64,000 bases of DNA from a virus. Lineage: Duplodnaviria; Caudoviricetes. A program made the translations under genes and the position numbers. Positions 1 to 42,874 of this stretch are shown in pieces. The notes under the pieces were generated by a model that worked only from the letters and a program-made list of their open reading frames with translations, was not told the DNA's origin and made no database searches. The DNA lies in the IMG/VR virus record IMGVR_UViG_3300037882_001196, positions 751 through 64,750 of that record. One strand, given 5' to 3'. How positions within the stretch are numbered: position 1 is the stretch's first letter; every line of letters begins with the position of its first letter.

Positions 1-432
1 TTGATTCTTGGCCACTATGAAACTCCGTGTGGTGGCTGCGACTCGATTGGGAGTGCTCCAAAGATATATGAACTCATGGTTGAGTGTTATACGCACTACA
101 TCGTCGGCGGAGTAAAGCCAATCATTCTCGCTGAAGGACTCCTTCTGAGCGAAGATGTGAAGTGGACGAAACAGATTCCAGCGTGGGACGACGTAGTGGT
201 GTACTACTTAACTACTCCCTCAGAGAGGTGTCTGGAGCAGGTTCAGAGTAGGAGAGAGTTGGTTGGTAATGATAAGCCCCTGAATCCAGACAATACGTTG
301 AAACGTGTTGGAGTTATCGAACGAAGTAGGATAAAATTGACAGACGAAGGAATCAAGTGTGTTCGATGTTCTTCTAATCAAGCAGCAAAACTTATAATCG
401 AGAGAGTGTTAAATGCCAACAAGAGTGACTGA
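1..432 (+). CDS. P-loop nucleotide kinase of DNA hypermodification clusters (5'-truncated)
   Basis: LGHYETPCGGCDSIG and AEGLL motifs resemble P-loop kinases found beside aGPT-Pplase genes. Walker A would lie upstream of the window. Confidence 0.6.
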   Translation: MILGHYETPCGGCDSIGSAPKIYELMVECYTHYIVGGVKPIILAEGLLLSEDVKWTKQIPAWDDVVVYYLTTPSERCLEQVQSRRELVGNDKPLNPDNTLKRVGVIERSRIKLTDEGIKCVRCSSNQAAKLIIERVLNANKSD

Positions 433-1510
433 TTGGAGGGAGTTGAAGAACCGGGAGGAACTGTTTTTCCGTTACTTCAAATGGCGTTCAACAGTACATG
501 ATCTTGATCATAGTCATTACTGTAAGATTTTAGCACAAGGAATGACTGACTCTCAAAAGTGTTGGTTTTCACTTCTGTTCGGTATGACTTATCGAACACC
601 ACAAGCCTACGCTTACTGGTACCACTTCAATGATTTTGAATTACTAAACATTGATGACGTAACAGAATGGAACAAAGACAACTGGAGCAGAACCTCTTAT
701 GGTACAGATGCTAGGTACAACAAAGGCCACTTCGCCTCACAAACAAAGTCAATTATTGAGTGGGTGGGGGAAGAAGGACTACTGAAAAAGATTCGCCGAC
801 TTACAAACTCACCAAACAGAAAGACAAACTTTGACAGACTTTTCAACGAGATAGGAAAGCTATTCAAGTATGGTCGAATGATGTCTTGGATAACTTGTCA
901 GTGCTTGTATGACACACTGAATCTACGAATTGACATTGACAACGTTTTGATATCCAACCCAATGTACGACACAAGCATGCAGTCAATTTGGAATGGATAT
1001 AACGTCATGAAAGGCCGACATGATAGACTTCTTGGTAAATATACAACAACAGATTACAGGATTACAGACACCGACCTAGTAGAAGTTTCATCAGACATAA
1101 TGCGGTATCGAGAGTTAGCCCACAAAATAACTGGAATACTCGTTGACGTGTTCAAGTGGGAAAGCATCTGGTGTCAGTTCAAGAGATTATTTAACACAAA
1201 AGATAGTAGAGAGTATCCAGGGCACGCCACAGGAGATGCTGTCTCACGTTATCTCTACTACAGAGAATACTGGCCAGAAGTAGATTGGTCAAAGTTTCGA
1301 GAGGCTTTGTTAAGCCAAGATAGCATAATCTGCGGCCAAACGTATGTTAACAATTATAACAAAGTGTTTGGTAATACAGGGTTGTTGTTAAATATGCATG
1401 AAATGTTTGGAGACATGCCAAATGCTTATGAGGTGTTAAATCTAAATCCAAACAAGAATCTTGTTAGAGAGTTGTTTATTGACCATGAACATGAGGTGCC
1501 AGAATTATGA
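413..1510 (+). CDS. aGPT-Pplase2 / amino acid:DNA transferase-like (HhH glycosylase fold)
   Basis: FGMTY, TDARYNKG, KYGRMMSW and ESIWCQFKR...YPGH motifs. Overlaps the kinase gene. Confidence 0.7.
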   Translation: MPTRVTDWRELKNREELFFRYFKWRSTVHDLDHSHYCKILAQGMTDSQKCWFSLLFGMTYRTPQAYAYWYHFNDFELLNIDDVTEWNKDNWSRTSYGTDARYNKGHFASQTKSIIEWVGEEGLLKKIRRLTNSPNRKTNFDRLFNEIGKLFKYGRMMSWITCQCLYDTLNLRIDIDNVLISNPMYDTSMQSIWNGYNVMKGRHDRLLGKYTTTDYRITDTDLVEVSSDIMRYRELAHKITGILVDVFKWESIWCQFKRLFNTKDSREYPGHATGDAVSRYLYYREYWPEVDWSKFREALLSQDSIICGQTYVNNYNKVFGNTGLLLNMHEMFGDMPNAYEVLNLNPNKNLVRELFIDHEHEVPEL

Positions 1511-2376
1511 ACTCGTTAGTTGGTATTGGTGTACCATCAAAAAACAGACCAGAGGCATTCATGAAATACACATTTAGAATACTTCAACATACCAAGGTTC
1601 CATGGTATGTGTTTGTTGAACCACAAGACCTTGAGAGATACAAGAAAACCCTGCCGTTGGAATATAGAGGAAACATCATTGAAATCGGCAGTAATGACAG
1701 AGGGTTCGGGTTTGTTCTAAACGAGATAGAAAGTTACCTGACAGAACGTGGACACACCTACACGTTCAAAATCGACGATGATTGTAAACACTGGTATGAC
1801 TCACCAAAAGTTAAACCGAAAGAAGACCAAGGTGTGATGCTTGATAAAATTGTAAACAGAGTAGGAGAAGCTCACAAGCTGTTTGGTGATACTCTTGGTG
1901 CAGTGAGTTTTGCGTCAAACTACTTTCATGGAGATTGGCGACCATGGACACATGTGTATAAGCAACATGAGACGATGTTCGTTGTAAGAAATGATAGTTG
2001 GTTTGTTCCATCAAAACTGAAAGGCTATCATGATGAGTTGGTTACCACAGCCAACCTTTTTCTAAAAGGTAAGGTATCATTAAGGTGTGGGGAGTTTTGT
2101 TGGGCAGCTGACCTATCGGTACTCGAAGGTGGGCTACAAGATTTTGATAGAGAAGAAGAGCAGAGCAGATATTTTGATGTGTTGGTTAAGGAATTTCCAG
2201 TAATTGCTTCGATGACTCAGAGACAGGAATACACCCAACCTTCTGGTAAGATATTCTCCGTTACAAACAAGAAATGCTTCAACAAGAGATTCTCACACAA
2301 GTTACCACTCAAACCATCGGCCCATGATAAGTTTTCAAAGGAGATTCTGAGATGTCTATTAAAGTTGGTATCGTAG
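1507..2376 (+). CDS. TAGT/GREB1-like GT-A glycosyltransferase (DNA base modifying family)
   Basis: IGVPSKNRP, VFVEPQD, KIDDD (DxD), and a late GG motif (LEGGLQ). Confidence 0.65.
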   Translation: MNSLVGIGVPSKNRPEAFMKYTFRILQHTKVPWYVFVEPQDLERYKKTLPLEYRGNIIEIGSNDRGFGFVLNEIESYLTERGHTYTFKIDDDCKHWYDSPKVKPKEDQGVMLDKIVNRVGEAHKLFGDTLGAVSFASNYFHGDWRPWTHVYKQHETMFVVRNDSWFVPSKLKGYHDELVTTANLFLKGKVSLRCGEFCWAADLSVLEGGLQDFDREEEQSRYFDVLVKEFPVIASMTQRQEYTQPSGKIFSVTNKKCFNKRFSHKLPLKPSAHDKFSKEILRCLLKLVS

Positions 2377-3470
2377 GTGTCGGCAACTGTGCTAAGTCAT
2401 TAGTAGAGGCTGTGGTGTACTTCAAGACAAACCCTGAAGACACAACTGGTTTAGCGTTTCCGAAGATCGGTGGTTACACCCCAGCCGATATTCAATTTTT
2501 GTGTGCGTTCGATGTAGACCAGCGTAAGGTTGGTTTAACACTTGGTGATGCAATCTACACTGGAACAAATTGCGCCAAAGACTTGATTGAACGTGATACA
2601 GTCAAGAAGGTATTAAACCGATGTCAATTTGTCTACGGGGGACCGATGTATGATGGTGTTGCTCCACACATGTTAACAACAGACAAAACTGATAGGAGTC
2701 GATTTTGTGTAAACAGCTATGACTTGAAAGACTCAGTAGCAGAACTTAAACTAGCAACGATGCGAGCTGTGCTTCATAGAGACAGACCAGATGTCATGCT
2801 TCTTTACCTTCCTGTTGGTAGCCAGAAAGCAACAGAAGCCTACGTGAATTTGTTTCTTGAACTGAAAATTCCGTTTGTTAACTGTATCCCGGTCTTCATC
2901 GTCTCTGATGAACAGTGGAAACAGAAGATCATCGACGCAGGTATTTGTGCTATTGGTGACGACATGCGCAGTCAGGTTGGGGCATCCGTTCTATCCCAAG
3001 TTCTCCAAGAGATGTTCATTTCGCGGGGGGCTGAGGTAGACTTTCACTGCCAACAGAATAGTGGAGGAAATACAGATTTTCTAAACATGACAGATAAGAC
3101 TCGACTGATATCAAAGAAGATCAGCAAGGAGAACGTCATAAATTCTGTGGTTGGGGGGCAAGACTGTTTCGTTCACGCAGGACCATCAGACTATGTTGAG
3201 TATCTCGGAGACAAGAAGGTTGCAACAATTCGGATAGAGGCAAGAGGTATTACAGGAGTGCCAATCGTACTAGACGCCAGACTTGAGGTTCAGGACTCCC
3301 CTAACAGCGCAGGCATCGTCATAGACGCAATACGCTACCTGAAGCGGGCAACTGAGTTAGGTATCGTAGGACCATTGTATGGGCCGTCTGCAGCGACACA
3401 GAAGACACCGCCGAAACAACTAAGCTATGCGGATGCTTACGCGGAGTGTAAGAAGTTGGCTGAGAGTTGA
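2352..3470 (+). CDS. ino1: myo-inositol-1-phosphate synthase
   Basis: GIVGVGNCA Rossmann motif, YLPVGS, FVNCIP, GDDMRSQVGA, GGNTDFLNM, SKKISK, DSPNSAG and KTPP motifs. Confidence 0.93.
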   Translation: MSIKVGIVGVGNCAKSLVEAVVYFKTNPEDTTGLAFPKIGGYTPADIQFLCAFDVDQRKVGLTLGDAIYTGTNCAKDLIERDTVKKVLNRCQFVYGGPMYDGVAPHMLTTDKTDRSRFCVNSYDLKDSVAELKLATMRAVLHRDRPDVMLLYLPVGSQKATEAYVNLFLELKIPFVNCIPVFIVSDEQWKQKIIDAGICAIGDDMRSQVGASVLSQVLQEMFISRGAEVDFHCQQNSGGNTDFLNMTDKTRLISKKISKENVINSVVGGQDCFVHAGPSDYVEYLGDKKVATIRIEARGITGVPIVLDARLEVQDSPNSAGIVIDAIRYLKRATELGIVGPLYGPSAATQKTPPKQLSYADAYAECKKLAES

Positions 3471-3474
3471 TGTG

Positions 3475-3507
3475 AAAAAACCCAGCTAGTAATTATCTAG
3501 CTGGGTT
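3475..3507 (-). terminator. Intrinsic terminator between convergent genes
   Basis: AACCCAGCTAG-N7-CTAGCTGGGTT stem with an A-run on the plus strand (U-tract on minus). Confidence 0.75.
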
Positions 3508-3527
3508 AAAGAAGTGGGCGGCAGAGA

Positions 3528-3860
3528 TTACTTCGCTTCATCGAATTTGACTTTGACGCCCTTTGTTCCAAGGTACCACTTGAACCCCTCTTCGGTCGCA
3601 ACCCGAATGATAAACTCTTGTTCCGTGATATCCCATTTCGGGTTAAGCTGGTGCTTGATCTGCTTTTCTTCGATTCCTGCAGCCTTGACAATCTGCTCAA
3701 ACCCGACTGCCTTCGTTGCCTTGTTGGCATCGAGTTTACGCAGAGCCTTAATCAAGGCTTGCTTTGCTGGAGTCCAGCGAATTTCCTTGGTCTTGTTATC
3801 CAAGGGTTGCTTCACCTCAGCTGCCGGCTTCGTGACTTTGGTTTCGTTCTTCTTGGCCAT
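3528..3860 (-). CDS. Small basic protein, probable winged-helix DNA-binding
   Basis: Start MAKKNETK is preceded by GAGTACC. Helix-helix-helix-wing pattern. Confidence 0.45.
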   Translation of the reverse strand: MAKKNETKVTKPAAEVKQPLDNKTKEIRWTPAKQALIKALRKLDANKATKAVGFEQIVKAAGIEEKQIKHQLNPKWDITEQEFIIRVATEEGFKWYLGTKGVKVKFDEAK

Positions 3861-3926
3861 GATTAGGTACTCTTGTCGGGTTACTTTCAGTCTCACTTGC
3901 TTACTCGTTTTCAACCCGACACTGAT

Positions 3927-4019
3927 ATAATAGCTGACTCTGCTCAAAAGTAAACTCCAGAAAGCAGAATTTTATGAGAAAGTTGAAAATTCCCTCAAAC
4001 CGTAAAACCAAGTTATAAT
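3927..4019. promoter_or_regulatory. Divergent promoter pair
   Basis: Plus strand TTCCCT-N18-TATAAT (3990-4019). Minus strand TTTACT-N16-TATTAT (3954-3927). Confidence 0.5.
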
Positions 4020-4056
4020 AGTAGCTCAACCCAGACCTATAGTAGAGGACCGAACG

Positions 4057-4671
4057 ATGAACGTGATTCTTGACCTAGACGAAGTGTTGGCGGACTTCGT
4101 AGGCGGTATGCTTCGTCTCCACGGAGTCACCCCAAGCCAACACCGCGAGCGGATGCAACCGGGAGAATGGGGAGTAGAGAAAGCATTACAAATTTCCGCA
4201 AACGAAATGTGGCAGTCAATTCATCAGAACCATGGATTTTGGTTTTCTCTCAATAAAACTCCTTGGATGACTAAGCTGCTGGATATTGTCAATGGGTTTG
4301 ACCCAAATTGGTTTGTCGTTTCTTCTCCGAGTCGATGCGTATCAAGCCATGTGGGTAAGTTCCATTGGCTCAAATACCATTTTGGAGATTCTTTTGACCG
4401 ATTCGCTTTAACTAATTACAAGCACCGATTCGCAAACCCAAGCACGGTGTTAATTGACGACCACGAACCGAACGTAGATAACTTCCGCAAGGCTGGAGGC
4501 TATGCGATTCTTTGGCCAGCCTACCATAACCGCGATTGGAAAATTGCAAACACAGGCCTAGCCTTACAGCACGTGATGACCGAACTAACTAAGGTTCAAT
4601 ACCAAATGGACTTTGAAAAGAACGGCGACAATAATCCAACACGTTTCGATCTAAAAAGGGAGGACATCTGA
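4057..4671 (+). CDS. HAD-family 5'(3')-deoxyribonucleotidase (NT5C-like)
   Basis: DLDEVLAD motif I, K..WL..HF and LIDD motif IV. Confidence 0.85.
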   Translation: MNVILDLDEVLADFVGGMLRLHGVTPSQHRERMQPGEWGVEKALQISANEMWQSIHQNHGFWFSLNKTPWMTKLLDIVNGFDPNWFVVSSPSRCVSSHVGKFHWLKYHFGDSFDRFALTNYKHRFANPSTVLIDDHEPNVDNFRKAGGYAILWPAYHNRDWKIANTGLALQHVMTELTKVQYQMDFEKNGDNNPTRFDLKREDI

Positions 4672-4853
4672 TGAACTGGAGAAACTATCGTTGGCCACAC
4701 ACACCAGAGAATGATCTACTTCCTTGGTGGTTGTTAATTTGGGGACTACTCTGGGTGGGACCGTTTTACCTATGTTGGCTTCTTGCGGCTATCTTCTACG
4801 GTATTGGCCGTCTCTCGATTGAAGACAGCGAAGCATTCTGGAATCAAAACTAA
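4671..4853 (+). CDS. Small membrane protein
   Basis: Trp-rich hydrophobic segment. Translationally coupled and has an AGGGAGGA RBS. Confidence 0.55.
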   Translation: MNWRNYRWPHTPENDLLPWWLLIWGLLWVGPFYLCWLLAAIFYGIGRLSIEDSEAFWNQN

Positions 4854-4862
4854 GGAGTAATA

Positions 4863-6200
4863 ATGCACATTACAACCCGCAACGTCAACACGGCGTTCCA
4901 AGAACTGGTAACCATCTTCAGAGATGGTTATAAGTTTTCTGGTAGATACAGAGACTTGGGCGGTAAGTGTACTATAGTTGAACGTCCGTCACGCAACGGC
5001 AACGTATTGATGATTGATGAACCCGTTACCGTGACGTACACCCATCCACGAGAACGGGTATTGTTCAACGAGGCACGAGATGTCAACCCCTTCTTCCATA
5101 TGTACGAAGCCTTGTGGATGCTCGCAGGTAGGAACGATGTTGAATCCGTCGCTTACTACGCTTCCAACATGAAGAACTATAGTGACAATGGTAAGACGCT
5201 GAATGGTGCCTACGGGTATCGGTGGCGACACGCTTGGAGTCAAGATGACTTGAGCCAACATGACCAAATCCAAATCATCATCGACCATCTGCGGGCTGAC
5301 CAAAATAGTCGGCGTGCCGTACTCCAGATGTGGAACGTGGAGGACGACTTGTTGAAGATTGGTGGTGGGTGTCCTACATGTAACGGACAGTGGACAGAAG
5401 AACAAGCTATCAAGTTAGACGAGAAATCCCCATCCCAAGGTGGGGTGTGTCCAAACTGTTCAGGAACCAACAAACCATTCATTGACTCAAAAATATTCAA
5501 AGACGTGTGCTGCAACCTGTCGGTGATGTTCTCGATTCGTGAAGAAGGGTTGACCATCGAGCGGTTCCTCAACTCCAAACACATTAAGTCGGATGGGAAC
5601 GTGGCGACGATGAGACCACCAACACCCAAGAGTTTTCTCGACATGACAGTAACCAACCGCTCAAACGATATGATTTGGGGGATGCTTGGGGCGAACTACG
5701 TTCACTTCACTATCCTCCAGGAATACATCGCGGGGTGTCTCGGAGTAGAAGTAGGACTATACCACCACTTCACGAATAACCTCCACGTGTATGAGAACAA
5801 CTGGAAACCGGATGAGTGGTTGAAAGAGCCGCAACAATTTGGTTTCCACAGTTCAAACGGCGACGATTGGGGCGGACAATATAGGGATTGGAAAACTATC
5901 CCACTCGTCAAAGACCAAGCAACGTTCGACCGTGAGGTTGAATTATTCGTTCGTCAGTTTGATGGATCAACAGAAGCATCAGTACCCGGTCGTAATAGTG
6001 CAAACAACTACATTGAACCATTTCTGAGATATGTAGCTCAACCAATGCTTATGGCGTTCCAAGCATACAAGAGGAGGGAACGGGATGTTGAAGCGATGTT
6101 AGTTGCTTTGGAGTGGTGTAAAGAAATTCAAGCCGACGATTGGCGGATCGCAGCAACGAACTGGATCAACCGACGTAAGGAGAAGAAGAAGAATGGATAG
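4863..6200 (+). CDS. Thymidylate synthase homolog, probable dUMP hydroxymethylase
   Basis: GAYGYRW, SRRAVLQMW, DVCCN (catalytic Cys), NRSNDMIWGMLGAN (Asn indicates dUMP specificity), NLHVY. Confidence 0.8.
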   Translation: MHITTRNVNTAFQELVTIFRDGYKFSGRYRDLGGKCTIVERPSRNGNVLMIDEPVTVTYTHPRERVLFNEARDVNPFFHMYEALWMLAGRNDVESVAYYASNMKNYSDNGKTLNGAYGYRWRHAWSQDDLSQHDQIQIIIDHLRADQNSRRAVLQMWNVEDDLLKIGGGCPTCNGQWTEEQAIKLDEKSPSQGGVCPNCSGTNKPFIDSKIFKDVCCNLSVMFSIREEGLTIERFLNSKHIKSDGNVATMRPPTPKSFLDMTVTNRSNDMIWGMLGANYVHFTILQEYIAGCLGVEVGLYHHFTNNLHVYENNWKPDEWLKEPQQFGFHSSNGDDWGGQYRDWKTIPLVKDQATFDREVELFVRQFDGSTEASVPGRNSANNYIEPFLRYVAQPMLMAFQAYKRRERDVEAMLVALEWCKEIQADDWRIAATNWINRRKEKKKNG

Positions 6201-6483
6201 AGGTATCGAAGTAATCTGCCCGCAAGGTTGGAGTTACGTCAAGCCTAACTTTGTTAAGATATTCATGAACGGAGTAGATGTAACCCAGTATGTCTACGAA
6301 CTATTGAAAGCAACCCATGAACCCTCTCGTGATCCTGAGTTGAATAAACTCGTTTGTGATAATTATAACGATGTCTTCATCCAAACCCAATATGGTGAAT
6401 CATTCACAGGCGAAGATTGGATAGGGTGGCTTGAAGAAATGTTTGCCCTTGAAATAACTTACAAAGATGGAGAAATCAATTGA
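6193..6483 (+). CDS. Hypothetical protein
   Basis: ATG overlaps the end of the upstream gene. Confidence 0.5.
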   Translation: MDRGIEVICPQGWSYVKPNFVKIFMNGVDVTQYVYELLKATHEPSRDPELNKLVCDNYNDVFIQTQYGESFTGEDWIGWLEEMFALEITYKDGEIN

Positions 6484-6860
6484 ATGCAAATGAAACCCAA
6501 GTGGGGGGAACCCACTACAAGACCGGCGGTGAAGAACATTGGGACCGTGTTGCCCGACTTGGCTTGAATTACTATGAGGGTAACATCACCAAGTACGTCG
6601 AACGGGCACGGAAAAAGAACGGTATCCAAGACCTCAAGAAGGCTGCCCATTATCTACAAAAGCTGATTGAGTTAGCAGAGATGGGAGTGGTTGTTGATTA
6701 CTCTCCGAGTCAACCCGGAAGCAAAGCAGAATTGATTGAGCAAACAGACAAGGTTGATATGGAACCCTGTTATGATTGTGGAGAGTTATATCCCCATGAG
6801 GATTTTGTACAGGGTTTGCTTTATTGTACAACTTGTAGAAAGAAAAGAGGAAAACTATGA
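6480..6860 (+). CDS. DUF3310 / SaV-like (T7 gp1.7-related) protein with C-terminal Zn finger
   Basis: QVGGTHY, GNITKYVER..KKNG..DLKKA..Y and CxxC..CxxC. Confidence 0.8.
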   Translation: MNANETQVGGTHYKTGGEEHWDRVARLGLNYYEGNITKYVERARKKNGIQDLKKAAHYLQKLIELAEMGVVVDYSPSQPGSKAELIEQTDKVDMEPCYDCGELYPHEDFVQGLLYCTTCRKKRGKL

Positions 6861-7438
6861 GCCAAGAACCAACAACTGATTTTCGCCACAACCTATTCGA
6901 CACGCCTCAAACATCCAGAGGAGTTAAAAGTATGACACCAAACGAATATCAACAACTGGCGGCACGGACGGAATGCAACCAATCCAATAGCTTGGCCAAC
7001 ATGAGCCATGGACTTGCTTGTAATGGAGAAGGACTTAGTAAAGTCAGACAACAAGACTTACTCTCAATCCGTCTCAATCACTCAATCATCGGCCTATCGG
7101 GGGAAGTGGGAGAACTCGCAAGCCTACTCCAGAAGTGGATTTATTACAACAAGCAATTCACTCCTGAAGAGTTGACGTTGAAGCTGAGTGAAGAGTACGG
7201 TGACGCTCTTTGGTATGTTGCGGAGGGGTTAAACGCTCTTGGTGTAAGTATGGAGGATGTGATGCAACGAAACATCGAGAAACTTAAGATACGGTATCCA
7301 GATAAGTATACGGATTGGCACGCAGCGCACGAGAACCGTAAATTGAAGGAAGAGGAATCAGCCCTACGAATCCACGAGCCAACGCCGATGGATTATGAAA
7401 TGGAGGATGCAGGAACCCCCTCTCCTGAAGGGAAGTAA
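6857..7438 (+). CDS. MazG-like nucleoside triphosphate pyrophosphohydrolase
   Basis: NEYQQLAART, GLSGEVGE, EEYGDALWY and NIEKLKIRYP. Confidence 0.88.
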   Translation: MSQEPTTDFRHNLFDTPQTSRGVKSMTPNEYQQLAARTECNQSNSLANMSHGLACNGEGLSKVRQQDLLSIRLNHSIIGLSGEVGELASLLQKWIYYNKQFTPEELTLKLSEEYGDALWYVAEGLNALGVSMEDVMQRNIEKLKIRYPDKYTDWHAAHENRKLKEEESALRIHEPTPMDYEMEDAGTPSPEGK

Positions 7439-7489
7439 TCAGCTATAATCGCCCAGTGTCTTTTAACTACCACAACTTGAGAAGGAATC

Positions 7490-9757
7490 ATGCCAACAAA
7501 GAACGATGTCCCCAAGACTCTCCAACCCTACGCTTTCCACGGACTCGATGTCTCAAACATTTCTTCGGATGAAGCAATTACGGATTGCCCGTTCTGTGGA
7601 CGTGAAAACAAATTCAGCATCAACGTCGAATCAGGACTCTGGCGATGTCTCGTGTGTAATGAAGGAAGCAATACGGGGAAGAGTTTCAATGGGGGTAACA
7701 TCTATACGTTCATTCGCAAGTTGTGGTCACTCTCCTATGATGCAACAACGGGTTATGACGAGTTGACCAAGTTCCGTAAGCTACTCCAACCAGACACTCT
7801 TATCCGTTGGCAGGTAGCACGCAGCACACTAGGCTACGGCAATTGGGTAGTACCAGCCTACGGAGCGGATGGCAAACTGAATCAACTCTATCGTTACATC
7901 AAGGACTCCTCTTCAGGAAAATTTCGCCTGATGGCCACGAGTCAATTAGGTCATGCTTTATTCGGGGTGAACCTACTCAACAAGAATTGCCGCACGGTCT
8001 ACATCTGCGAAGGACCGTGGGATGCAATGGTGCTTTGGGAAGTTCTCTGCTGTGCGAAACCAGACGGCGATAATTATGAACGAACCGCGAATGAAGCCAA
8101 CGCATTGATTAGTAATTCAAGTGTCATCGCCTCTCCCGGTTGTAATGTGTTCGACCAGAAGTGGCTTGAACTCCTTGCGGGGAAGAAAGTTGTTATCTGT
8201 TTCGACAACGATCATCCGAAGATTCATCCAGCAACTAAGAATGTGATCGAACCTGCTGCGTGGCTTGGTGCAAAGCGTCTAGCCTCTATGCTTGCTTCTT
8301 ACGAATCACCACCAAAAGAGATTCACTACTTAGCTTGGGGTGGAGCTGGAAAGAACCACGACAGTAACTTGGTTAGTGGTTATGACCTACGCGATTATTT
8401 CTCTGAGGAAGATACGCTTGATGGGCGTGTTAGAGTCTTAGGTAAGTTGATGGAGCGAATCCTACCGATACCTACGGACTGGATTGGTGGACGAACAGTT
8501 CAAGCCAAGGAGACAGGCGGCACCGATCTAGATTGTAAAGAGTGTTCCAATTGGAAAATACTTGAGACCTCTTGGCGTAAGGCAATGAAGTGGACAGACG
8601 GCTTGAGCAGTGCCTTAGCAGTTATGTTGGCCTCAATCACTTCTACAAAAGCAGCAGGTGATCAACTATGGATTAAGGTCATCGGTCCTGCTGCTTGCGG
8701 CAAGAGTACGCTCTGTGAAGCCTTGTCGGTAAATAAGCGTTTCGTCTTAGCCAAGTCAACGATTCGTGGATTCCATAGTGGCTATCAAACCGACCGCGAA
8801 GGCAAAGAAGACAACAGCCTCATGGTATCTATTCAAGACAAAACACTTGTCACGAAGGATGGCGATACTCTTCTTCAATCCCCAAACCTTGGTCAAATTC
8901 TCTCCGAAGCACGCGACGTATATGACGGCACTTCACGAACTCACTACCGCAACAAGATGGGTAAAGACTATAACAATTTCCGCATGACTTGGATTCTCTG
9001 TGGTACGTCTTCACTTCGTAGTATTGATGCCTCTGAATTAGGCGAACGGTTCCTTGATTGCGTTATCATGGAGCGCATCGACGATGATCAAGAAGATGAG
9101 ATTCTGATTCGTGTAGCGAATAAGGCCAAGCGTGTGCTTGCCATCGAAGCAGATGGTACGATGAAGAGCCAACACGATGTTGAGATGGTAAATGCTATGC
9201 AACTGACGGGTGGTTATATTGCATACCTTCGCAGCAACGCCAATGACCTCCTCTCCGCAGTAGAGATGGACGAAGAGACGACGAAACGTATCATCCATCT
9301 TGGTAAATTTGTTGCCTACATGCGTGCCCGACCAAGTACACGACAAAGCGAAAATGCTGAGCGTGAATTTGCAGCACGCTTAGTTAGTCAATTAGTTCGT
9401 CTCTCCAACTGTCTTGCGGTTGTCATGAATTACCAAACGGTGTCAAAAGAAGTCATGGTAAAAGTGACGAAGGTGGCTTTAGACACAGCACGTGGAAAGA
9501 CTTTAGAGATTGCCCGAATTTTGCACGAATCAGGTACAATACATGAGGAGTGTGGAGTGTTGATTGATTCTCTAACGATTATACTCGGAGAGAAGACAAG
9601 CGACATGAAAGACCTACTGAAGTTCCTAATCCGTATTGGTGCGGTCGAAAGCTACCGCAAGAAGAACGTCGGCGTTCAGACCAAGCCAATCTATCGTCTC
9701 ACGGAACGTCTTTACAACCTCTACAGTGAGGTAATGGAGTTAAACAACGATGGCTAA
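7490..9757 (+). CDS. Zn-finger TOPRIM primase fused to AAA+ (MCM-like) helicase
   Basis: CPFC..CLVC, ICEGPWD, DND and YDLRD, then GPAACGKST Walker A, ERF and RLVSQLVRL. Confidence 0.75.
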   Translation: MPTKNDVPKTLQPYAFHGLDVSNISSDEAITDCPFCGRENKFSINVESGLWRCLVCNEGSNTGKSFNGGNIYTFIRKLWSLSYDATTGYDELTKFRKLLQPDTLIRWQVARSTLGYGNWVVPAYGADGKLNQLYRYIKDSSSGKFRLMATSQLGHALFGVNLLNKNCRTVYICEGPWDAMVLWEVLCCAKPDGDNYERTANEANALISNSSVIASPGCNVFDQKWLELLAGKKVVICFDNDHPKIHPATKNVIEPAAWLGAKRLASMLASYESPPKEIHYLAWGGAGKNHDSNLVSGYDLRDYFSEEDTLDGRVRVLGKLMERILPIPTDWIGGRTVQAKETGGTDLDCKECSNWKILETSWRKAMKWTDGLSSALAVMLASITSTKAAGDQLWIKVIGPAACGKSTLCEALSVNKRFVLAKSTIRGFHSGYQTDREGKEDNSLMVSIQDKTLVTKDGDTLLQSPNLGQILSEARDVYDGTSRTHYRNKMGKDYNNFRMTWILCGTSSLRSIDASELGERFLDCVIMERIDDDQEDEILIRVANKAKRVLAIEADGTMKSQHDVEMVNAMQLTGGYIAYLRSNANDLLSAVEMDEETTKRIIHLGKFVAYMRARPSTRQSENAEREFAARLVSQLVRLSNCLAVVMNYQTVSKEVMVKVTKVALDTARGKTLEIARILHESGTIHEECGVLIDSLTIILGEKTSDMKDLLKFLIRIGAVESYRKKNVGVQTKPIYRLTERLYNLYSEVMELNNDG

Positions 9758-11050: not shown

Positions 11051-11470
11051 GTGTGGATAACTCGGAGTAACCACGTGGGTAAGAAGAAACGCAACAAAAG
11101 AGAAGAAAGAGGTCAATCGAGAGTCAAGATCAAGGTCCATACAAGGAAGGTGGTGATAAGGACAGAGAGCACTCTTGAGATTGAAATAAAGAAGCCCCAA
11201 GTAGTCAGCAAGAATCCAAGAGGGGGTAGAAAAGATCACCAGACTCCAATAATCAAAGAACCAAAGACAAAACAAGAACACCAGCTGTATAAGGAACTTC
11301 AACGACCAACCTGCTATATGCCGGGCACGGAAGAAAAGATCACCCTCCTATCACTAAGAAGACTCTATGGACTTCCTCTCTATGTCGATGGTGATATCAA
11401 GTGGGGAGACGAAGGAACTGAAGCAATTGCCTTTACAGAGACAGCAAACGAAAACCTATTTAGAGATTGA
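11051..11470 (+). CDS. Hypothetical protein with PTxxxPGxxEK...R...GxPL motif (start uncertain)
   Basis: PTCYMPGTEEKITLLSLRRLYGLPLYVDGD, a motif I associate with planctomycete proteins. Confidence 0.55.
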   Translation: MWITRSNHVGKKKRNKREERGQSRVKIKVHTRKVVIRTESTLEIEIKKPQVVSKNPRGGRKDHQTPIIKEPKTKQEHQLYKELQRPTCYMPGTEEKITLLSLRRLYGLPLYVDGDIKWGDEGTEAIAFTETANENLFRD

Positions 11471-11471
11471 T

Positions 11472-11816
11472 ATGAATTGGAAATATGGTGCATCAGCCTG
11501 TCTTGATGTAAGATTTAGATTAGACAACCCATACTTTCAAGTTTATATCTGTTGGGTAGAACATCGAAAAATTTGGGGAGGAGTAATAAGGGGGCTTGGT
11601 TTAGAAGAGGGTATCGCTTTTCAGTATGCCTCAAAATCCTTGAAGGAGGTTAAGAACAAGACAGAAGAGGAGTTGTTTCTTTACATCAACGGAATCAAAC
11701 ACCCAACCACTTGTATATACATTGATCCGACAACTTTGTGTAGTGAGTCTTTTGATTACAGCAAACACGGGGACAAAACAATAACGTTTGGGTTTACTAA
11801 TTCAACAGGAGATTGA
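11472..11816 (+). CDS. Hypothetical protein
   Basis: Starts within GAGATTGATATG. Confidence 0.55.
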   Translation: MNWKYGASACLDVRFRLDNPYFQVYICWVEHRKIWGGVIRGLGLEEGIAFQYASKSLKEVKNKTEEELFLYINGIKHPTTCIYIDPTTLCSESFDYSKHGDKTITFGFTNSTGD

Positions 11817-11817
11817 T

Positions 11818-12192
11818 ATGTGGGAAAGAGTAAGCACGAACAAGGGTGGTTATTTCCGTAAGGTAGTGGGAAACTATCGAGCGATCATCGACAAGGTAGA
11901 GGGTGGTTGGCGTGGGAGAATAATGACTACGCTTGTTGTGAAAGAAGCACCAAATATGACAAGTCAGGCGACGATAAGCCTATTTGCTCGTTACCATACC
12001 TCTATTACCAATACCAAAACGTTACTTGAAGAGCAACTACAGGCGTGGGTGTCTGGGAAGAAACTTGAGGAGTACCTTGCTCCAAAAGTATTATTTGTTA
12101 TTGAACCCCAGACTCTTAAGAGTGAATTTAGAGCATGGATGGAAGTGGATGAGGTTGGTATGACTAAGATTTATAATAAATTGGGATTGTGA
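11818..12192 (+). CDS. Hypothetical protein, probable paralog of upstream gene
   Basis: Same GAGATTGATATG start context. Shares WxGxI, EExL and IxPxTLxSE. Confidence 0.55.
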   Translation: MWERVSTNKGGYFRKVVGNYRAIIDKVEGGWRGRIMTTLVVKEAPNMTSQATISLFARYHTSITNTKTLLEEQLQAWVSGKKLEEYLAPKVLFVIEPQTLKSEFRAWMEVDEVGMTKIYNKLGL

Positions 12193-12222
12193 TTTTCCCC
12201 CTAAAGGGCTAAGGAGGCTAAG

Positions 12223-12891
12223 GTGCCTAAACCAAAAAGTACAAAACGTCAAAATACAAAACCTCAAAATACAAAACCTCAAAATACAAAACCCAAGATT
12301 GAGGTTTCCAACAACCAGTTGAGTGAATATCAACATCAACAAAACAAGGATAAGGTTGCTGAATTATACAGAAGGGGTTTAACAAGGAGGTATGTTGCGA
12401 AACAGTTGAATGTTAGTGAATCACAAGTTGCTAAATACTGGAAGGAGATTGTTGCTGAATACAGAGAAGACAGGGAAGATGATATTGAGAGTGCTGTATT
12501 CAAGAAGCTGGAGGAATATGGTGAGATCAAACGTGAGGCTTGGGAGGCTTGGGAGAAGAGCAAAGACCCTATTGAGAAGGAGTTGTATGAGACAGTAACA
12601 AGCGATTTTGGGGTGAAGACGCTTGCGAGAAGATATAAGGAAGGGAGACTACCCCATAGTGCTTATCTTGAGATCATCATGTCGTGTATCAAGGAGGAAC
12701 GGGTATTGCTTGGTTTGAATCCAGTCAAGAACGTCACTGGTAGTATGGCGATTGGAGGAGTCTCGTTTGACTGGGACTTGTTTGTACAAGAAGTTAATCG
12801 TCCGAATCTAAGGAACGAAGCGGAAGAGCGTATCTATGAAGGACTACCAAGAGTGGTCATCAATCCAGAACCCATCGAGGACAAGAAATGA
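12223..12891 (+). CDS. Terminase small subunit candidate (HTH)
   Basis: HTH (VAKQLNVSESQV) and position upstream of TerL. N-terminal QNTKP x3 repeat. Confidence 0.6.
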   Translation: MPKPKSTKRQNTKPQNTKPQNTKPKIEVSNNQLSEYQHQQNKDKVAELYRRGLTRRYVAKQLNVSESQVAKYWKEIVAEYREDREDDIESAVFKKLEEYGEIKREAWEAWEKSKDPIEKELYETVTSDFGVKTLARRYKEGRLPHSAYLEIIMSCIKEERVLLGLNPVKNVTGSMAIGGVSFDWDLFVQEVNRPNLRNEAEERIYEGLPRVVINPEPIEDKK

Positions 12892-13070
12892 ACAAAGACC
12901 TATTAGATGATAACGTGATACCTTGGTTCTGTTCCGGGGTGTTTCTCCTTATTCTCTGTATCACCATCTACCAAATACTTGAAACTTATTGGTCACACAA
13001 GAGGAGAATGAAAGAGATAGAGAAAGAACCAAAGAGTACAAAAGACGACGATGAAGATGATGAAGACTAG
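12888..13070 (+). CDS. Small single-TM membrane protein
   Basis: Hydrophobic helix with a charged tail. Coupled start. Confidence 0.5.
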   Translation: MNKDLLDDNVIPWFCSGVFLLILCITIYQILETYWSHKRRMKEIEKEPKSTKDDDEDDED

Positions 13071-13135
13071 ACTCAGCGTTCCTTTCCCCTCTATATAGTA
13101 GGCGTCTACTAGTAGAGGGAAGAGGCTAACGCGAA

Positions 13136-14761
13136 ATGAGTACCAGAGATATAGGTTCACTTCTCCGGACGATCGGGACCGACCCAATCAAATTCGGTAA
13201 GGCTTGTTGGCCTCACGTCACGTTCTACAAACAACAAATTGACATCATCGAATCAGTGCTGAATAATACGGAGACTTACGTCAAAGCAGGTAACATGCTT
13301 GGTAAGGACTTCGTGACTGCATTCATTGTGATCTACGCTTTCCTCTCTCGTAATCCTTGTCGCATCGTTACTACATCGGTCGATAGTGCCCAGCTTGAGG
13401 GTGTTCTCTGGGGGGAAATACGAAACTTCATCCAGACATCACGTATCCCTCTTGATTCGGAGAAGGGTGGACCCTTGATCTGTAATCACATGCACCTTCG
13501 CAAGCAGATCAATGGGAACGAAGATGGACTATCTTACGTGATCGGTCGTGTAGCGAAGAAGGGGGAAGGGTTACTAGGTCACCACATCGCAGAACATGGG
13601 GATGGTATCCCTAGAACATTCGCCATTGGGGATGAAGCATCAGGCCTAGATGATGAGGTTCATACACGCTGTACAACGTGGGCACGCAGACTCTTGTTCA
13701 TCGGGAATCCCTATCCATGCGAGAACTTCTTCAAGAAGATGTCCAAGGAAGGAGACTTGAAAGACCCAACACGTGATGGGATGTATTATCGTAAGGTGTT
13801 CAAGATCAAGGGGGAGGATTCACCAAACGTTCGTAGAGCACAGGCGGAACGTGAGGCTGGATTATCTCCTTCAGGGAAGATCGTCGTGCCCGGTGTTCTC
13901 CCTTATCCTGACTACGTGTATCGTCGTGCTACATGGGATGTTATTCGTCAGTGTGTTTCTCTCGATGCGGAGTTTTGGGAAGGTGCTGAGATTCTCTTAT
14001 TCCCTCCTCAATGGCTTGATAAAGCAGAACGTCGTGCACTAGGGTTGATGGGACAGAAGCGTGTCTGTAGAGCGATAGGAATAGATACAGCAGAAGGGGG
14101 GGACAATACTGCTTTCGTAGCAATCGACGAATATGGCATCATTGAGATCGTCTCGGAGAAGACACCTGATACCGATTCGATCTGCGGTAAAGCAATCGCG
14201 TTTATTCTCAAGCACGCTTGTCCTCATCAAAACGTCGCCATTGATAGAGGCGGGGGTGGTAAACAACTCGCAGATCGCCTACGCAAACAAGGCTTTGACG
14301 TTCGTACAGTAGCGTTCGGTGGTTCGGTTACTCCTGCTCCGAAGTTTGGGATGAAGCCAGTATCAGAGCGTGTTGATGACCAAGAGGAACGTTACGCCTA
14401 CGTCAATTGTCGAGCACAGATGTATGGTGAGTTAAGCCTATTGCTAGACGTTGGTGGATTCGGTAGTCACGAAGTCTGGTATATGATTCAGAAGCGTTTT
14501 GGCATACCTCTCTCGGAACTTACTCAAGGCTTCAGCATTCCTGCGAGAGAACACCTACGACACCAAATGGCCCCAATCCCTAGGTGGTATGACGGGGAAG
14601 GGCGTCTACGCTTACCTAGCAAAAACAAGAAGAGCAAGGACAGCAAAGAGAAGACACTAACAGAGATGATTGGTCATTCGCCTGACGAACTCGATGCTTT
14701 AGTTCTTGCTGTTCATGCAATGCTTCATCGAAGCACAAAAGTAATCGCCACAAGTTCTTGA
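13136..14761 (+). CDS. terL: Terminase large subunit
   Basis: AGNMLGKD Walker A-like, GDEASG Walker B, IGNP, GIDTAEGGD nuclease motif and SPDELDAL. Confidence 0.92.
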   Translation: MSTRDIGSLLRTIGTDPIKFGKACWPHVTFYKQQIDIIESVLNNTETYVKAGNMLGKDFVTAFIVIYAFLSRNPCRIVTTSVDSAQLEGVLWGEIRNFIQTSRIPLDSEKGGPLICNHMHLRKQINGNEDGLSYVIGRVAKKGEGLLGHHIAEHGDGIPRTFAIGDEASGLDDEVHTRCTTWARRLLFIGNPYPCENFFKKMSKEGDLKDPTRDGMYYRKVFKIKGEDSPNVRRAQAEREAGLSPSGKIVVPGVLPYPDYVYRRATWDVIRQCVSLDAEFWEGAEILLFPPQWLDKAERRALGLMGQKRVCRAIGIDTAEGGDNTAFVAIDEYGIIEIVSEKTPDTDSICGKAIAFILKHACPHQNVAIDRGGGGKQLADRLRKQGFDVRTVAFGGSVTPAPKFGMKPVSERVDDQEERYAYVNCRAQMYGELSLLLDVGGFGSHEVWYMIQKRFGIPLSELTQGFSIPAREHLRHQMAPIPRWYDGEGRLRLPSKNKKSKDSKEKTLTEMIGHSPDELDALVLAVHAMLHRSTKVIATSS

Positions 14762-28816: not shown

Positions 28817-29420
28817 ACATCCGGGTGGGCCGCACGCAATCGTTCGTATTGGAGAAGTAGAACGGACGATGCTTGTTCACCCCGCAGATTCGTCCCTGTT
28901 TGATCTTCTACTCCTCCTCCAGAGAGATGCTGGGGCGACAACCCTAACTCAGATATTGTTTGAGTTGATTCAAACGTATCGCACATACCAGTCAATGTTA
29001 TTAGAAGCCCAAGACAAGGAGCACCAAGCGATGGTTTTCAAAGTATTTCAAACCAAGTTGATCGGATTCTTCGATAAAGTTATCAGCCACACGACGATGA
29101 TGCCAAACGTCAACAAGGTGGCGGTGGCAGCGAAAGACTTTGTGAAGAACAAGGCTGCTGAATTTCAACCCCAACTTGAGGAATTATTTGCTCAGGAGAA
29201 GTTTGATCAAGCAGTTGATGTGCTTGTACTTCTCCTGAAGGGGAATCTCAACCACGTCATCATCCCTGCTGGTGGATTCTGGGCACGTCTCTTTGGTCGT
29301 GTTCTTCCGGTTGATCCTGTGGTTGATCTTCTTGGAAGTTGGTTGAAGAACAATCGCGTGCTCTTCAAAGATGCCGCAGGTGATGGGAACCCGATGTCCG
29401 CGATAGGGGAAGAAAGCTAA
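28809..29420 (+). CDS. Hypothetical protein (alternative start 29031)
   Basis: Open frame with an internal AAGGAG-ATG. Confidence 0.5.
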   Translation: MSKHPGGPHAIVRIGEVERTMLVHPADSSLFDLLLLLQRDAGATTLTQILFELIQTYRTYQSMLLEAQDKEHQAMVFKVFQTKLIGFFDKVISHTTMMPNVNKVAVAAKDFVKNKAAEFQPQLEELFAQEKFDQAVDVLVLLLKGNLNHVIIPAGGFWARLFGRVLPVDPVVDLLGSWLKNNRVLFKDAAGDGNPMSAIGEES

Positions 29421-29848
29421 TGGCACAGAGAACAACCACTACGCTAGTCCAAGCCTTGTTGGAAACAAACGGAGAAGACTACCGTAGCGGTGTTAGTCTT
29501 CAACCGTTTGTTGATTCTGCTACGGTGTTGGTAGATCGTGTCGCAACGAAGGCAACGGCAAAAGGCTATACCCTTCTTGCGACCGAACTTGAGTTGATTG
29601 AACGTTGGTTATCCGCCCATGCCTACGCGATGGTTGATCAGACTCTTGCTAGTAAGTCAACCAACGGTCGGTCTGGTAGATTCCAAGGCCAGACCGGGAT
29701 GCGTCTTGAGGCCACCAAGTATGGTCAAATGGCGTTGATGCTTGATACATCAGGAGCGTTGGAAGCGATCAACAAAAGACAAGTAGCCGGAATTACATGG
29801 CTGGGGGTTACCGAAAACGAAGCCCTGGACTACGAAGATCGTCAGTAA
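29420..29848 (+). CDS. Head-tail adaptor
   Basis: IERWLSAH and L.ATKYGQMA..LD pattern. Confidence 0.75.
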   Translation: MAQRTTTTLVQALLETNGEDYRSGVSLQPFVDSATVLVDRVATKATAKGYTLLATELELIERWLSAHAYAMVDQTLASKSTNGRSGRFQGQTGMRLEATKYGQMALMLDTSGALEAINKRQVAGITWLGVTENEALDYEDRQ

Positions 29849-29852
29849 CTAA

Positions 29853-29939
29853 CCTAGAAGCCTCTTTAACGAAGGAACTAAGTTAAGGTAGGTAAATATC
29901 CATCTAACCGAAGAAGATTCGTTAGAGAGGCTTCTAGGA
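29853..29939. repeat. CTAG-armed palindrome
   Basis: CCTAGAAGCCTCTTTAACGAA...TTCGTTAGAGAGGCTTCTAGG. Confidence 0.7.
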
Positions 29940-29949
29940 AGGAAGAATT

Positions 29950-30324
29950 ATGAGCGTAGAACGTCGGACGATGGGACAGAAAGCGGTCTTGTGGACGAAG
30001 GCAGGAACCTTCGATAACTACGGGAATCCGGTTTTCAGTGAACCAGAAGAGATTGACTGTAATTGGAAGCGTTCCCGACGTTTGGCGAGTGGACAACAAA
30101 GAGGGACGGATACAGTCGATGCAACGATGGATATCAAACAGCTCATCGAACCGGGAGCACAGGTTTATCTAGGGACACTTGAGACTTGGTACGGTAGCGG
30201 TTCGGGGGGGAATAATGATCTTGTGATGATTGTTGTCTCTTGCGACGAATGCGCTGACGTTCGCAATCGGGTTACGGGATACACCTGTGCTCTACAGTAT
30301 GCAAAAGATCAAAGCCCAAGTTAG
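29950..30324 (+). CDS. Head closure (stopper) protein
   Basis: Q.AVLW, DNYGNP..SEPEEI, and synteny. Confidence 0.7.
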   Translation: MSVERRTMGQKAVLWTKAGTFDNYGNPVFSEPEEIDCNWKRSRRLASGQQRGTDTVDATMDIKQLIEPGAQVYLGTLETWYGSGSGGNNDLVMIVVSCDECADVRNRVTGYTCALQYAKDQSPS

Positions 30325-30336
30325 GGGGGTTAAACA

Positions 30337-30744: not shown

Positions 30745-30807
30745 GATTAGAGGCAGGGGAATACCCAGGTTGTTGGTACTCTACTGATGTAAACCCCTGT
30801 CTCTATT

Positions 30808-41205: not shown

Positions 41206-41253
41206 AAGCGTAGGCAGAGCAGAGATATGACTTCTTTGAGTTGTATTTCTACT

Positions 41254-41703: not shown

Positions 41704-41717
41704 CTGTATTTTCCCTC

Positions 41718-41757
41718 TACTCTACTTACTTATAAGTAATTATAAGTAAGTAGAGTA
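41718..41757. repeat. Perfect 18-bp inverted repeat
   Basis: TACTCTACTTACTTATAA-GTAA-TTATAAGTAAGTAGAGTA. Confidence 0.95.
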
Positions 41758-42798: not shown

Positions 42799-42872
<74 letters not shown>

Positions 42873-42874
42873 TG

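Follow-up and report, generated by a model that had tools for sequence, protein, structure and literature searches.

We identified a run of four overlapping genes at the left end of a phage genome fragment in IMG/VR (record IMGVR_UViG_3300037882_001196; Duplodnaviria, Caudoviricetes), and we propose that it encodes a thymidine hypermodification pathway of the kinase/amino acid:DNA transferase (AADT) type, in which the phage would synthesize an inositol-derived cyclitol and the AADT would place it on kinase-activated 5-hydroxymethyl-2′-deoxyuridine (5-hmdU) in DNA, with glycosylation possibly following. We assign this reading a probability of about 0.5. The kinase/AADT chemistry is already known; what is new is the donor class that we propose, together with a dedicated cassette for its supply. 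The DNA that we analyzed, referred to here as the window, is 64,000 nucleotides (nt) long and comprises bases 751-64750 of a record of 64,750 nt, which is estimated to be 91% complete. The four genes all lie on the plus strand, occupy positions 1-3470 of the window, and overlap by 20, 4 and 25 nt:

1-432, plus strand (last 143 codons in the window): P-loop kinase, a predicted 5-hmdU DNA kinase by its similarity to PaMx11 gp49
413-1510, plus strand: AADT (aGPT-Pplase2, PF18724), predicted to exchange the phosphate of phosphorylated 5-hmdU (5-PmdU) in DNA for a nucleophile
1507-2376, plus strand: TAGT-type GT-A glycosyltransferase with a DDD motif (PF20691)
2352-3470, plus strand: full-length myo-inositol-3-phosphate (1L-Ins-1-P) synthase, MIPS (PF01658)

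Linkage of inositol synthase and AADT genes

Using an alignment of the AADT clade to which the window protein belongs, we scanned IMG/VR and recovered 63 loci. MIPS is present in 59 of them and starts a median of 213 nt beyond the end of the AADT match; clustering of the loci at 95% nucleotide identity leaves 42 groups, 39 of them with MIPS. Since, of 50,697 phage records, just 19 contain MIPS (16 Stenotrophomonas, two copies of the Caulobacter phage Cr30, and one of the Ralstonia phage RP13), this pairing is far beyond chance, and it recurs across unlike genome backbones and alongside either of two sources of 5-hydroxymethyluracil (5-hmU). An earlier note on this DNA, made from the letters alone, had proposed an inositol donor and tied it to a conserved linkage of ino1 with AADT genes; searching in both directions, we find this linkage in the AADT clade and in Cr30 too. 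Among the four AADT loci that do not contain MIPS, the contig of L138 stops where the AADT ends, the AADT of L144 is only 29% identical, and the other two, L094 and L145, are considered with the alternatives below.

For the reverse search, we scanned IMG/VR with a MIPS alignment and analyzed the best 80 of 378 stretches, in which the AADT and other protein clusters were assigned using hidden Markov models built from our own alignments. Nine of these 80 stretches contain a member of the AADT clade and 63 contain an HMUDK_hel-like protein that we class as cluster 3, i.e., 72 of 80 contain one of the two, with eight containing neither; when grouped at 95% MIPS identity (n = 35 groups), the corresponding numbers are 8, 26 and 1. 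Seven of the eight contigs with neither protein end 1.4 kb or less after MIPS, and the eighth, L023, contains a methyltransferase, a small HAD protein and a QueC-like gene.

Examination of the 63 AADT loci demonstrated that the constant core consists of the AADT, MIPS, a phosphatase and a kinase, with the tailoring enzymes being interchangeable. A P-loop kinase is present in 48 of the 63 loci, and a small HAD protein of ~130 amino acids with the motifs DxDGV...TGR(S)...K...FEDD in 54 of 63, typically after MIPS; in L009, a dual-specificity (DSP-type) phosphatase is located where other loci have the small HAD. The tailoring genes encode FkbM-type methyltransferases (22 loci), GT4-type glycosyltransferases (12) and TAGT-like glycosyltransferases (5), and a glycosyltransferase of any kind is found in 17 of 63 loci, with none in the other 46. 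The source of 5-hmU is a TET/JBP protein in 49 loci and a thymidylate synthase homolog in two, both of which are relatives of the window. The window itself is a minority form, with a thymidylate synthase-type source, a kinase of the PaMx11 type and a TAGT glycosyltransferase, and without the small HAD. In one locus, L029, a protein with cytidylyltransferase-like and cupin domains (PF01467 and PF07883) is encoded at 6750-7583, between the AADT and a GT4 gene, which may point to an intermediate activated by a nucleotide in the lineage of this locus.

Many bacteria do not synthesize inositol. Because members of the AADT clade are nearly always found with MIPS and a phosphatase, they most likely use the product of these enzymes, myo-inositol. 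The AADTs characterized in PMC8989533 draw on abundant host metabolites, and therefore need no supply genes.

Two cultured phages contain parts of the same arrangement. Cr30 encodes the trio of AADT, glycosyltransferase and MIPS in the same order, as gp123 (AADT, 44% identical to the window protein), gp122 (TAGT-like, a weak match with E = 8.5e-4) and gp121 (MIPS, 45% identical), of which gp121 is annotated as an inositol-1-phosphate synthase, and gp122 and gp123 as hypothetical proteins. A P-loop kinase (gp114) and a small HAD (gp118) are also present. Cr30 differs from the window in being a 156-kb T4-like phage, in having the small HAD, and in its 5-hmU source, which is not a thymidylate synthase homolog but the TET/JBP-type protein gp129; the latter is annotated as an “SNF2 DNA repair protein” and clusters with a PF12851 protein of L007. 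The literature searched (titles and the starts of abstracts) yielded no description of the DNA chemistry of Cr30. In RP13, MIPS is preceded, at a distance of a few kb, by genes for an AADT-like protein (ORF118) and a strong HMUDK_hel protein (ORF120).

MIPS and the small HAD are also found together in a different setting. In the 63 cluster-3 loci (type B, the majority among L005-L084; e.g., L006 at 11173-13825), which lie on T4-like contigs, the two genes are flanked by those for cluster 2 and cluster 3 proteins. Cluster 2 proteins are ~350 amino acids long, contain GDSH and GNIDxRHH motifs, and match no Pfam family, while cluster 3 proteins, of ~400 amino acids, match HMUDK_hel weakly and contain an E...CCQ motif; a single PHROG profile covers both clusters as one 795-position family. 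We had considered type B loci as thymine systems on the basis of this weak HMUDK_hel match, and dropped the idea on finding that the neighboring thymidylate synthase-like gene encodes a dCMP hydroxymethylase of the T4 gp42 type (E = 2.9e-81), which indicates that these are hydroxymethylcytosine (hmC) phages. Nor do we claim homology between the AADT clade and cluster 3, where hhalign returned a 14-column match over the E...CQ motif with a probability of 1.1%. In the Stenotrophomonas phage Moby (L004/L147, record positions 28981-31462), ino1 and the small HAD are located between FolE and QueC/DpdA/QueE; the small HAD is gp040 (E = 1.6e-41), annotated as hypothetical, and no AADT or HMUDK_hel was found in the Moby genome. 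This organization suggests a link of inositol to 7-deazaguanine DNA modification too.

Enzymes encoded by the four overlapping genes

The earlier note had listed these four genes, followed by genes for a HAD phosphatase, a thymidylate synthase homolog, DUF3310 and MazG, and our analysis of open reading frames (ORFs) and Pfam matches confirmed the places and families of all of them. The matches for the AADT, glycosyltransferase, MIPS, NT5C-like HAD, thymidylate synthase homolog, DUF3310 and MazG exceed the curated Pfam cutoffs, and these include the three families (PF18724, PF20691 and PF01658) by which the note had suggested checking its assignments. The P-loop kinase, suggested for the same check, reached the cutoff of no Pfam or NCBIfam family, and its identity rests on its similarity to PaMx11 gp49, an experimentally verified 5-hmdU DNA kinase.

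The window MIPS looks like a working enzyme, judging from its similarity to Ino1 proteins and from the alignment columns that it keeps. It matches PF01658 with E = 2.6e-25 (89.1 bits against a cutoff of 27), shares 52-56% identity with bacterial proteins annotated as inositol-3-phosphate synthases, and matches Ino1 of M. tuberculosis (1gr0) end to end (residues 3-364, E = 3.2e-74), with the second-best match in the PDB being a MIPS-like five-membered cyclitol phosphate synthase (6k96, E = 9.8e-41). All of the invariant columns (116 of 116) in an alignment of 21 sequences, three named cellular enzymes included, are kept, and the N-terminal NAD-binding glycine motif, VGVGNCAKS, aligns to VGVGNCASS of 1gr0. 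Four lysines invariant in the 21 sequences (K255, K259, K289 and K351; spacing 4/30/62) may correspond, by spacing alone, to the catalytic lysines K274/K278/K306/K367 of the A. fulgidus enzyme (spacing 4/28/61) given in PMC11348189. The one NCBIfam model that matched was TIGR03450, mycothiol_INO1 (E = 3.2e-84), where the score of 283 bits is below the equivalog cutoff of 638 for a model that represents the enzyme of one lineage. In a quick, unrooted FastTree analysis of 61 sequences (after dereplication at 90%), five named cellular sequences branch within the viral MIPS, and the context labels are clustered, with starred branches forcing at least three changes of the AADT label; viral MIPS proteins thus appear to be closely related to cellular Ino1, and the MIPS gene appears to have changed context more than once. 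We also considered that MIPS might cyclize glucose already attached to DNA, which we rejected on mechanism, as ring closure needs a free C1 aldehyde (PMC11348189).

The AADT matches PF18724 over profile positions 2-227 of 232 (E = 3.3e-20, 73.2 bits against a cutoff of 26.2) and also phrog_3271 (E = 1.3e-55). A glutamate and a cysteine, E250 and C254 in the motif ESIWC, are invariant across nine clade members, and align to E243 and C247 (ETILC) of PaMx11 gp46 in an hhalign alignment that is anchored on motifs and has a probability of 4.7%. In the solved gp46 enzyme, Glu243 is metal-binding and Cys247 is the nucleophile (PMC11472151), and mutation of the Cys or the Glu is reported to abolish activity in M6 gp51 and ViI gp247 (PMC11472151, PMC8989533). 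The contacts to glycine described for gp46 in PMC11472151 are Trp146, Lys150 and Asp24; in the same 4.7% alignment, W146 and K150 correspond to M156 and I160 in the window protein (FGPW...K versus YGRM...I), where GRM, with Arg155 as its second residue, is invariant in the AADT clade, and Asp24 is not alignable. Since this alignment is weak, the loss of glycine contacts lowers the claim of an amino acid donor and does not exclude such a donor. The partners of the AADT are the kinase, whose gene it overlaps, and the thymidylate synthase homolog encoded at 4863-6200, as the predicted source of 5-hmdU.

The full ORF of the kinase begins 156 nt upstream of the first base of the window (L001, 595-1182) and encodes a protein of 195 amino acids with a Walker A motif, GTSGSGKT, and with no HMUDK_hel domain. 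It is 38% identical to PaMx11 gp49 (YP_009196302) over 94% of its length (E = 5e-19) and 25% identical to PhiW-14 gp37 (E = 8e-5) by tblastn, both of which appear among the 5-hmdU DNA kinases tabulated in PMC8989533 (Table 1). The kinase also matches phrog_800, which is labeled “terminase small subunit,” and the same public annotation is carried by the homologous P-loop 5-hmdU DNA kinases Cr30 gp114 and PaMx11 gp49.

The glycosyltransferase matches PF20691 with E = 9.8e-8 (32.6 bits against a cutoff of 27.5). Among 85 homologs, R14 and D90-D92 are invariant and D177 is nearly so, and the third motif is HDE in the window protein. An AlphaFold2 (AF2) model built from the 85-row alignment (pLDDT 94.6) has a GT-A fold, and its top Foldseek matches are the teichoic acid glycosyltransferases TarS, RmlT and TarP (TM 0.45-0.54); a profile search of the PDB returned nothing useful. 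The R...DDD motifs, the GT-A fold, and TarP and TarS as nearest structures are shared with phage GT-A DNA glycosyltransferases and the trypanosome base J glucosyltransferase, since bioRxiv 2023.12.21.572611 reports R...DDD...EDY/F motifs in the phage enzymes, gives TarP as their best match in the PDB and describes them as related to the base J enzyme. Unlike those enzymes, which are studied there beside a C5-methyltransferase and TET acting on 5-hydroxymethylcytosine, the window glycosyltransferase is located between an AADT and MIPS, in a record without TET/JBP.

Flanking genes and the source of 5-hmdU

The genes that follow MIPS in the window are:

3528-3860, minus strand (from ATG): small Lys-rich protein of 110 amino acids, its position kept in related contigs
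4057-4671, plus strand: NT5C-like HAD phosphatase (PF06941), a deoxynucleotidase or a stand-in inositol-phosphate phosphatase
4863-6200, plus strand: thymidylate synthase homolog of 445 amino acids with a Cys-rich insertion (PF00303), a predicted dUMP hydroxymethylase
6480-6860, plus strand: DUF3310 protein (PF11753)
6857-7438, plus strand: MazG-like nucleotide pyrophosphohydrolase (PF03819)

Downstream of the minus-strand gene there are six plus-strand ORFs in all, encoding the NT5C-like HAD, a 60-amino-acid protein, the thymidylate synthase homolog, a 126-amino-acid protein, DUF3310 and MazG. The earlier note had placed the four overlapping genes in one operon, next to the others, and this run of four stands; the 7.4 kb as a whole is not a single operon, since the conserved convergent gene at 3528-3860, between MIPS and the HAD, divides it into two plus-strand units. 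The protein encoded by this gene is Lys-rich at its N-terminus and ends in KFD, and homologous minus-strand ORFs follow MIPS in L079 and L042, the nearest relatives of the window, where the small HAD is located between MIPS and this gene. It has no PHROG match and could bind DNA in connection with the modification genes; no homolog was found for a plus-strand ORF over the same DNA (3514-3930). Pattern scans for promoters and terminators gave numbers near chance (13 versus 11.7 and 9 versus 6.1), and a megablast search of the region against phage records returned no match.

The NT5C-like HAD matches PF06941 (E = 5.3e-8) and phrog_2643, a 5′-3′ deoxyribonucleotidase (E = 5.9e-15), and in L019, L028 and L029, all of which are without the small HAD, homologs of it form part of the AADT/MIPS cluster. 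No relation between the small HAD and the NT5C-like HAD of the window was detectable using hhalign, and a search of the PDB with a small HAD profile gave nothing useful.

The thymidylate synthase homolog matches PF00303 (E = 1.4e-20) and is 36% identical to PaMx11 gp51. Its nearest cultured relatives are in PaMx11, M6-like and Bordetella phages, with several annotated as deoxyuridylate hydroxymethyltransferases, and we predict that it hydroxymethylates dUMP on the basis of its 33-36% identity to thymidylate synthase homologs of 5-hmdU-type phages and of their annotations. The catalytic Cys217 is invariant in the alignment. The description of this protein as Asn-type in the earlier note was borne out, with the Asn in its GANY motif aligning to the Asp of T4 gp42-like dCMP hydroxymethylase and of the CMP hydroxymethylase MilA; at this place in the base-recognition loop, Asn goes with uracil and Asp with cytosine. 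The thymidylate synthase fold is broken at residues ~167-213 by a Cys-rich, zinc-ribbon-like insertion (CPTC...CPNC); at this site, L042 has another Cys-containing insertion, and L079, L009 and PaMx11 gp51 have none or a shorter one. The DUF3310 protein matches PF11753 (E = 4.6e-10) and also PHROGs labeled as nucleotide kinases, and MazG matches PF03819 (E = 7.2e-8) and phrog_229 (E = 1.8e-34).

Searches of the whole 64,750-nt record found no radical SAM protein and no TET/JBP (PF12851). The earlier note had seen no amino acid tailoring enzymes, which holds record-wide for radical SAM, but a DegT-type pyridoxal phosphate (PLP) aminotransferase is encoded at 47243-48292. This gene is part of a second sugar cluster past the tail genes (40483-48292), which also contains two GT-B-type glycosyltransferases and a methyltransferase in addition to the DegT/StrS-family aminotransferase; the cluster could serve the synthesis of a virion glycan or a DNA-adduct glycan, and no link to the inositol genes was found. 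We set aside the aminotransferase as a route to an inosamine donor, given that it is 40 kb away in a separate glycosyltransferase/methyltransferase cluster and that no inositol dehydrogenase was seen. A stand-alone uracil-DNA glycosylase (UDG)-superfamily protein (56376-56957) and a family A DNA polymerase (61495-63738) are encoded by separate genes here; A-family polymerases fused to UDG have been reported for phages with thymine-modified genomes.

Proposed pathway and its alternatives

Based on these assignments, the pathway would begin with conversion of dUMP to 5-hydroxymethyl-dUMP by the thymidylate synthase homolog, with MazG, and perhaps the NT5C-like HAD, biasing the nucleotide pool, and with the family A polymerase placing 5-hmdU into DNA. 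The P-loop kinase would phosphorylate the hydroxymethyl group in DNA to give 5-PmdU, and Cys254 of the AADT would then attack C6, so that the phosphate leaves and an exocyclic methylene forms. The earlier note had a pyrophosphate being displaced in M6 and ViI, which does not agree with PMC8989533, where phosphate is described as leaving 5-PmdU. Up to the methylene, these steps follow from homology to characterized enzymes. In parallel, MIPS would convert glucose-6-phosphate of the host to inositol-3-phosphate, and a phosphatase would free myo-inositol, this being a dedicated small HAD in most relatives and, in the window, possibly the NT5C-like HAD or the inositol monophosphatase of the host. 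A ring hydroxyl of the cyclitol would add to the methylene, much as serine becomes O-linked in ViI, to give an ether-linked 5-(inosityl-oxymethyl)-dU, and the GT-A enzyme would add a sugar from a nucleoside diphosphate sugar to the cyclitol or to leftover 5-hmdU. The donor could be inositol itself, inositol phosphate or a glycosylated derivative, and the product may be methylated (in FkbM loci), glycosylated (in glycosyltransferase loci, the window included) or left bare. As a more specific and more tentative proposal, the base would be 5-(myo-inosityl-oxymethyl)-2′-deoxyuridine, further glycosylated in this phage, with MIPS and the phosphatase forming a portable donor cassette that has been plugged repeatedly into thymine (kinase/AADT), hydroxymethylcytosine and 7-deazaguanine chemistries.

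The proposed pathway resembles two known systems. The PaMx11 cluster encodes an AADT/PUGT (gp46), an FAD lyase (gp47), an acetyltransferase (gp48), a 5-hmdU DNA kinase (gp49) and a thymidylate synthase homolog (gp51), and the window shares with it the kinase (38% identity), the thymidylate synthase homolog (36%), an AADT of the same Pfam family with the Glu...Cys pair, and nucleotide-pool enzymes alongside. Unlike PaMx11, the window has no FAD lyase or acetyltransferase, with a GT-A glycosyltransferase and MIPS in their place, and no MIPS was found in the PaMx11 cluster; its AADT differs from gp46 in having Met and Ile at the Trp146 and Lys150 positions, as far as the weak alignment shows, and is too diverged for phmmer or a nine-sequence profile to find the gp46 structure. 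The pathway to 5-(2-aminoethoxy)methyl-2′-deoxyuridine (5-NeOmdU) in ViI uses 5-hmdU DNA kinases (5-HMUDK gp67 and gp243), the serine:DNA transferase gp247 and the PLP decarboxylase gp226, and shares with the window the logic of a kinase followed by an AADT, the latter using a hydroxyl nucleophile that gives an O-linked serine through an ether link (PMC8989533). Unlike the window, ViI has no MIPS, and its pathway as described has no glycosyltransferase; since its donor is an amino acid of the host, no donor-synthesis genes are needed.

The inositol donor put forward in the earlier note is upheld in part. In its favor are the linkage of ino1 with AADT genes, a MIPS that looks functional, the addition of a phosphatase in most relatives, and the lost glycine contacts, as far as a weak alignment can tell. 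Several findings weigh against it. The donor step is drawn from gene linkage and not from nucleoside chemistry, and we know of no AADT that uses a polyol. Searches of the PDB with the AADT (by phmmer, and with a nine-sequence profile) did not reach the solved gp46 structure, to which the hhalign probability was just 4.7%. The small HAD was found nowhere in the record, compared with its presence in 54 of 63 relatives, and the NT5C-like HAD of the window may be only a nucleotidase, since it is located beside the thymidylate synthase homolog, as it is in L079, which has both HADs. The window MIPS sits on a long branch beside that of L009, in a tree made with FastTree only. In two loci, L094 and L145, a member of the AADT clade is accompanied by a kinase, the small HAD and FkbM, and no MIPS is present despite 10 kb of sequence downstream. 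The pair of MIPS and HAD is present in hmC-type and deazaguanine clusters without an AADT, and so does not depend on the AADT. Lastly, the family to which the glycosyltransferase belongs is described as glycosylating 5-hydroxymethyl-pyrimidines in DNA directly (bioRxiv 2023.12.21.572611), so that the window enzyme may do the same and a base-J-like product is an alternative.

The alternative that survives best, although we regard it as unlikely, is that the window encodes two ordinary modifications and an unrelated MIPS, in which the AADT transfers an ordinary host metabolite (e.g., an amino acid or a polyamine), like the AADTs of M6, ViI and PhiW-14, the GT-A enzyme glucosylates 5-hmdU as in base J, and inositol is not the adduct. 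This would agree with the donors of the characterized AADTs, all of which are amino acids or putrescine as given in PMC8989533, with the direct activity of the glycosyltransferase family on DNA, with the AADT clade lacking MIPS in L094 and L145, and with the MIPS and HAD pair in clusters without an AADT. It does not account for the close association of MIPS with the AADT in 59 of 63 loci, which is not seen in the characterized AADT phages, or for the 46 loci without any glycosyltransferase, and the residues that contact glycine in the solved AADT are not retained, albeit in a weak alignment.

We consider it improbable that the glycosyltransferase acts first, on inositol-3-phosphate, with the resulting glycosyl-inositol, or an amino sugar on it, being the nucleophile of the AADT. 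Such a step would resemble that of MshA, which puts a sugar on inositol-3-phosphate in mycothiol synthesis, and the Ino1-MshA steps likewise combine an inositol-3-phosphate synthase with a glycosyltransferase, mycothiol_INO1 being the best NCBIfam model for the window MIPS. The gene order is also suggestive, with a TAGT-like glycosyltransferase between or beside the AADT and MIPS in the window, L079, Cr30 and L032, and Glyco_transf_4 and Glycos_transf_1 proteins in this position in L007, L008, L028 and L029. The window enzyme, however, is a GT-A of the DNA-directed TAGT type and not a GT-B (GT4) enzyme, no other mycothiol genes were seen, and the presence of a glycosyltransferase in only 17 of 63 loci, with FkbM instead in 22, makes glycosylation look like an optional tailoring step.

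It is also very improbable that the MIPS homolog makes another cyclitol phosphate, as 6k96 does, and that this cyclitol is the donor: the rank of 6k96 among the PDB matches and the long branch of the window MIPS point in this direction, but the protein is much closer to true Ino1 in both its PDB match and its identity to the named bacterial enzymes, every invariant column is kept, and named cellular sequences branch within the viral MIPS. A role of MIPS as an auxiliary metabolic gene for host takeover (for an osmolyte, lipid or cofactor), unconnected to DNA and lying in an early nucleotide-metabolism region, would fit the plain ino1 annotations of cultured phages and a link to DNA that is proposed here from gene neighborhoods, but it has little to recommend it when MIPS overlaps the glycosyltransferase by 25 nt in a translationally coupled run with the kinase and AADT, when every non-truncated locus among the best 80 of 378 MIPS stretches has base-modification genes alongside, and when the gene has changed context several times, always within such clusters.

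Our full-text searches found no published link of inositol synthesis to DNA modification, with the supplementary tables (Dataset S10 of PMC13229309; Table S4 and Fig. S10 of bioRxiv 2023.12.21.572611) outside the search, and the word “inositol” occurs 0 times in PMC13229309; the papers found by one of the searches use it just in naming structural homologs. The predicted nucleoside (C16H24N2O11, monoisotopic mass 420.138) is isobaric with glucosyl-5-hmdU, and surveys based on mass only could therefore have misread it. These genes are present in two cultured phages, Cr30 (Caulobacter crescentus) and RP13 (Ralstonia), making our reading directly testable. To our knowledge, the known thymidine hypermodifications are amino acids, polyamines or their derivatives, all from host pools. 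If our reading is correct, a cyclitol donor synthesized by the phage would add a new chemical class, the polyols, to the natural adducts of DNA; AADTs would then also accept a broader set of substrates, which is relevant to the enzymatic labeling of DNA, and the reading would predict new patterns of resistance to restriction enzymes and other nucleases.

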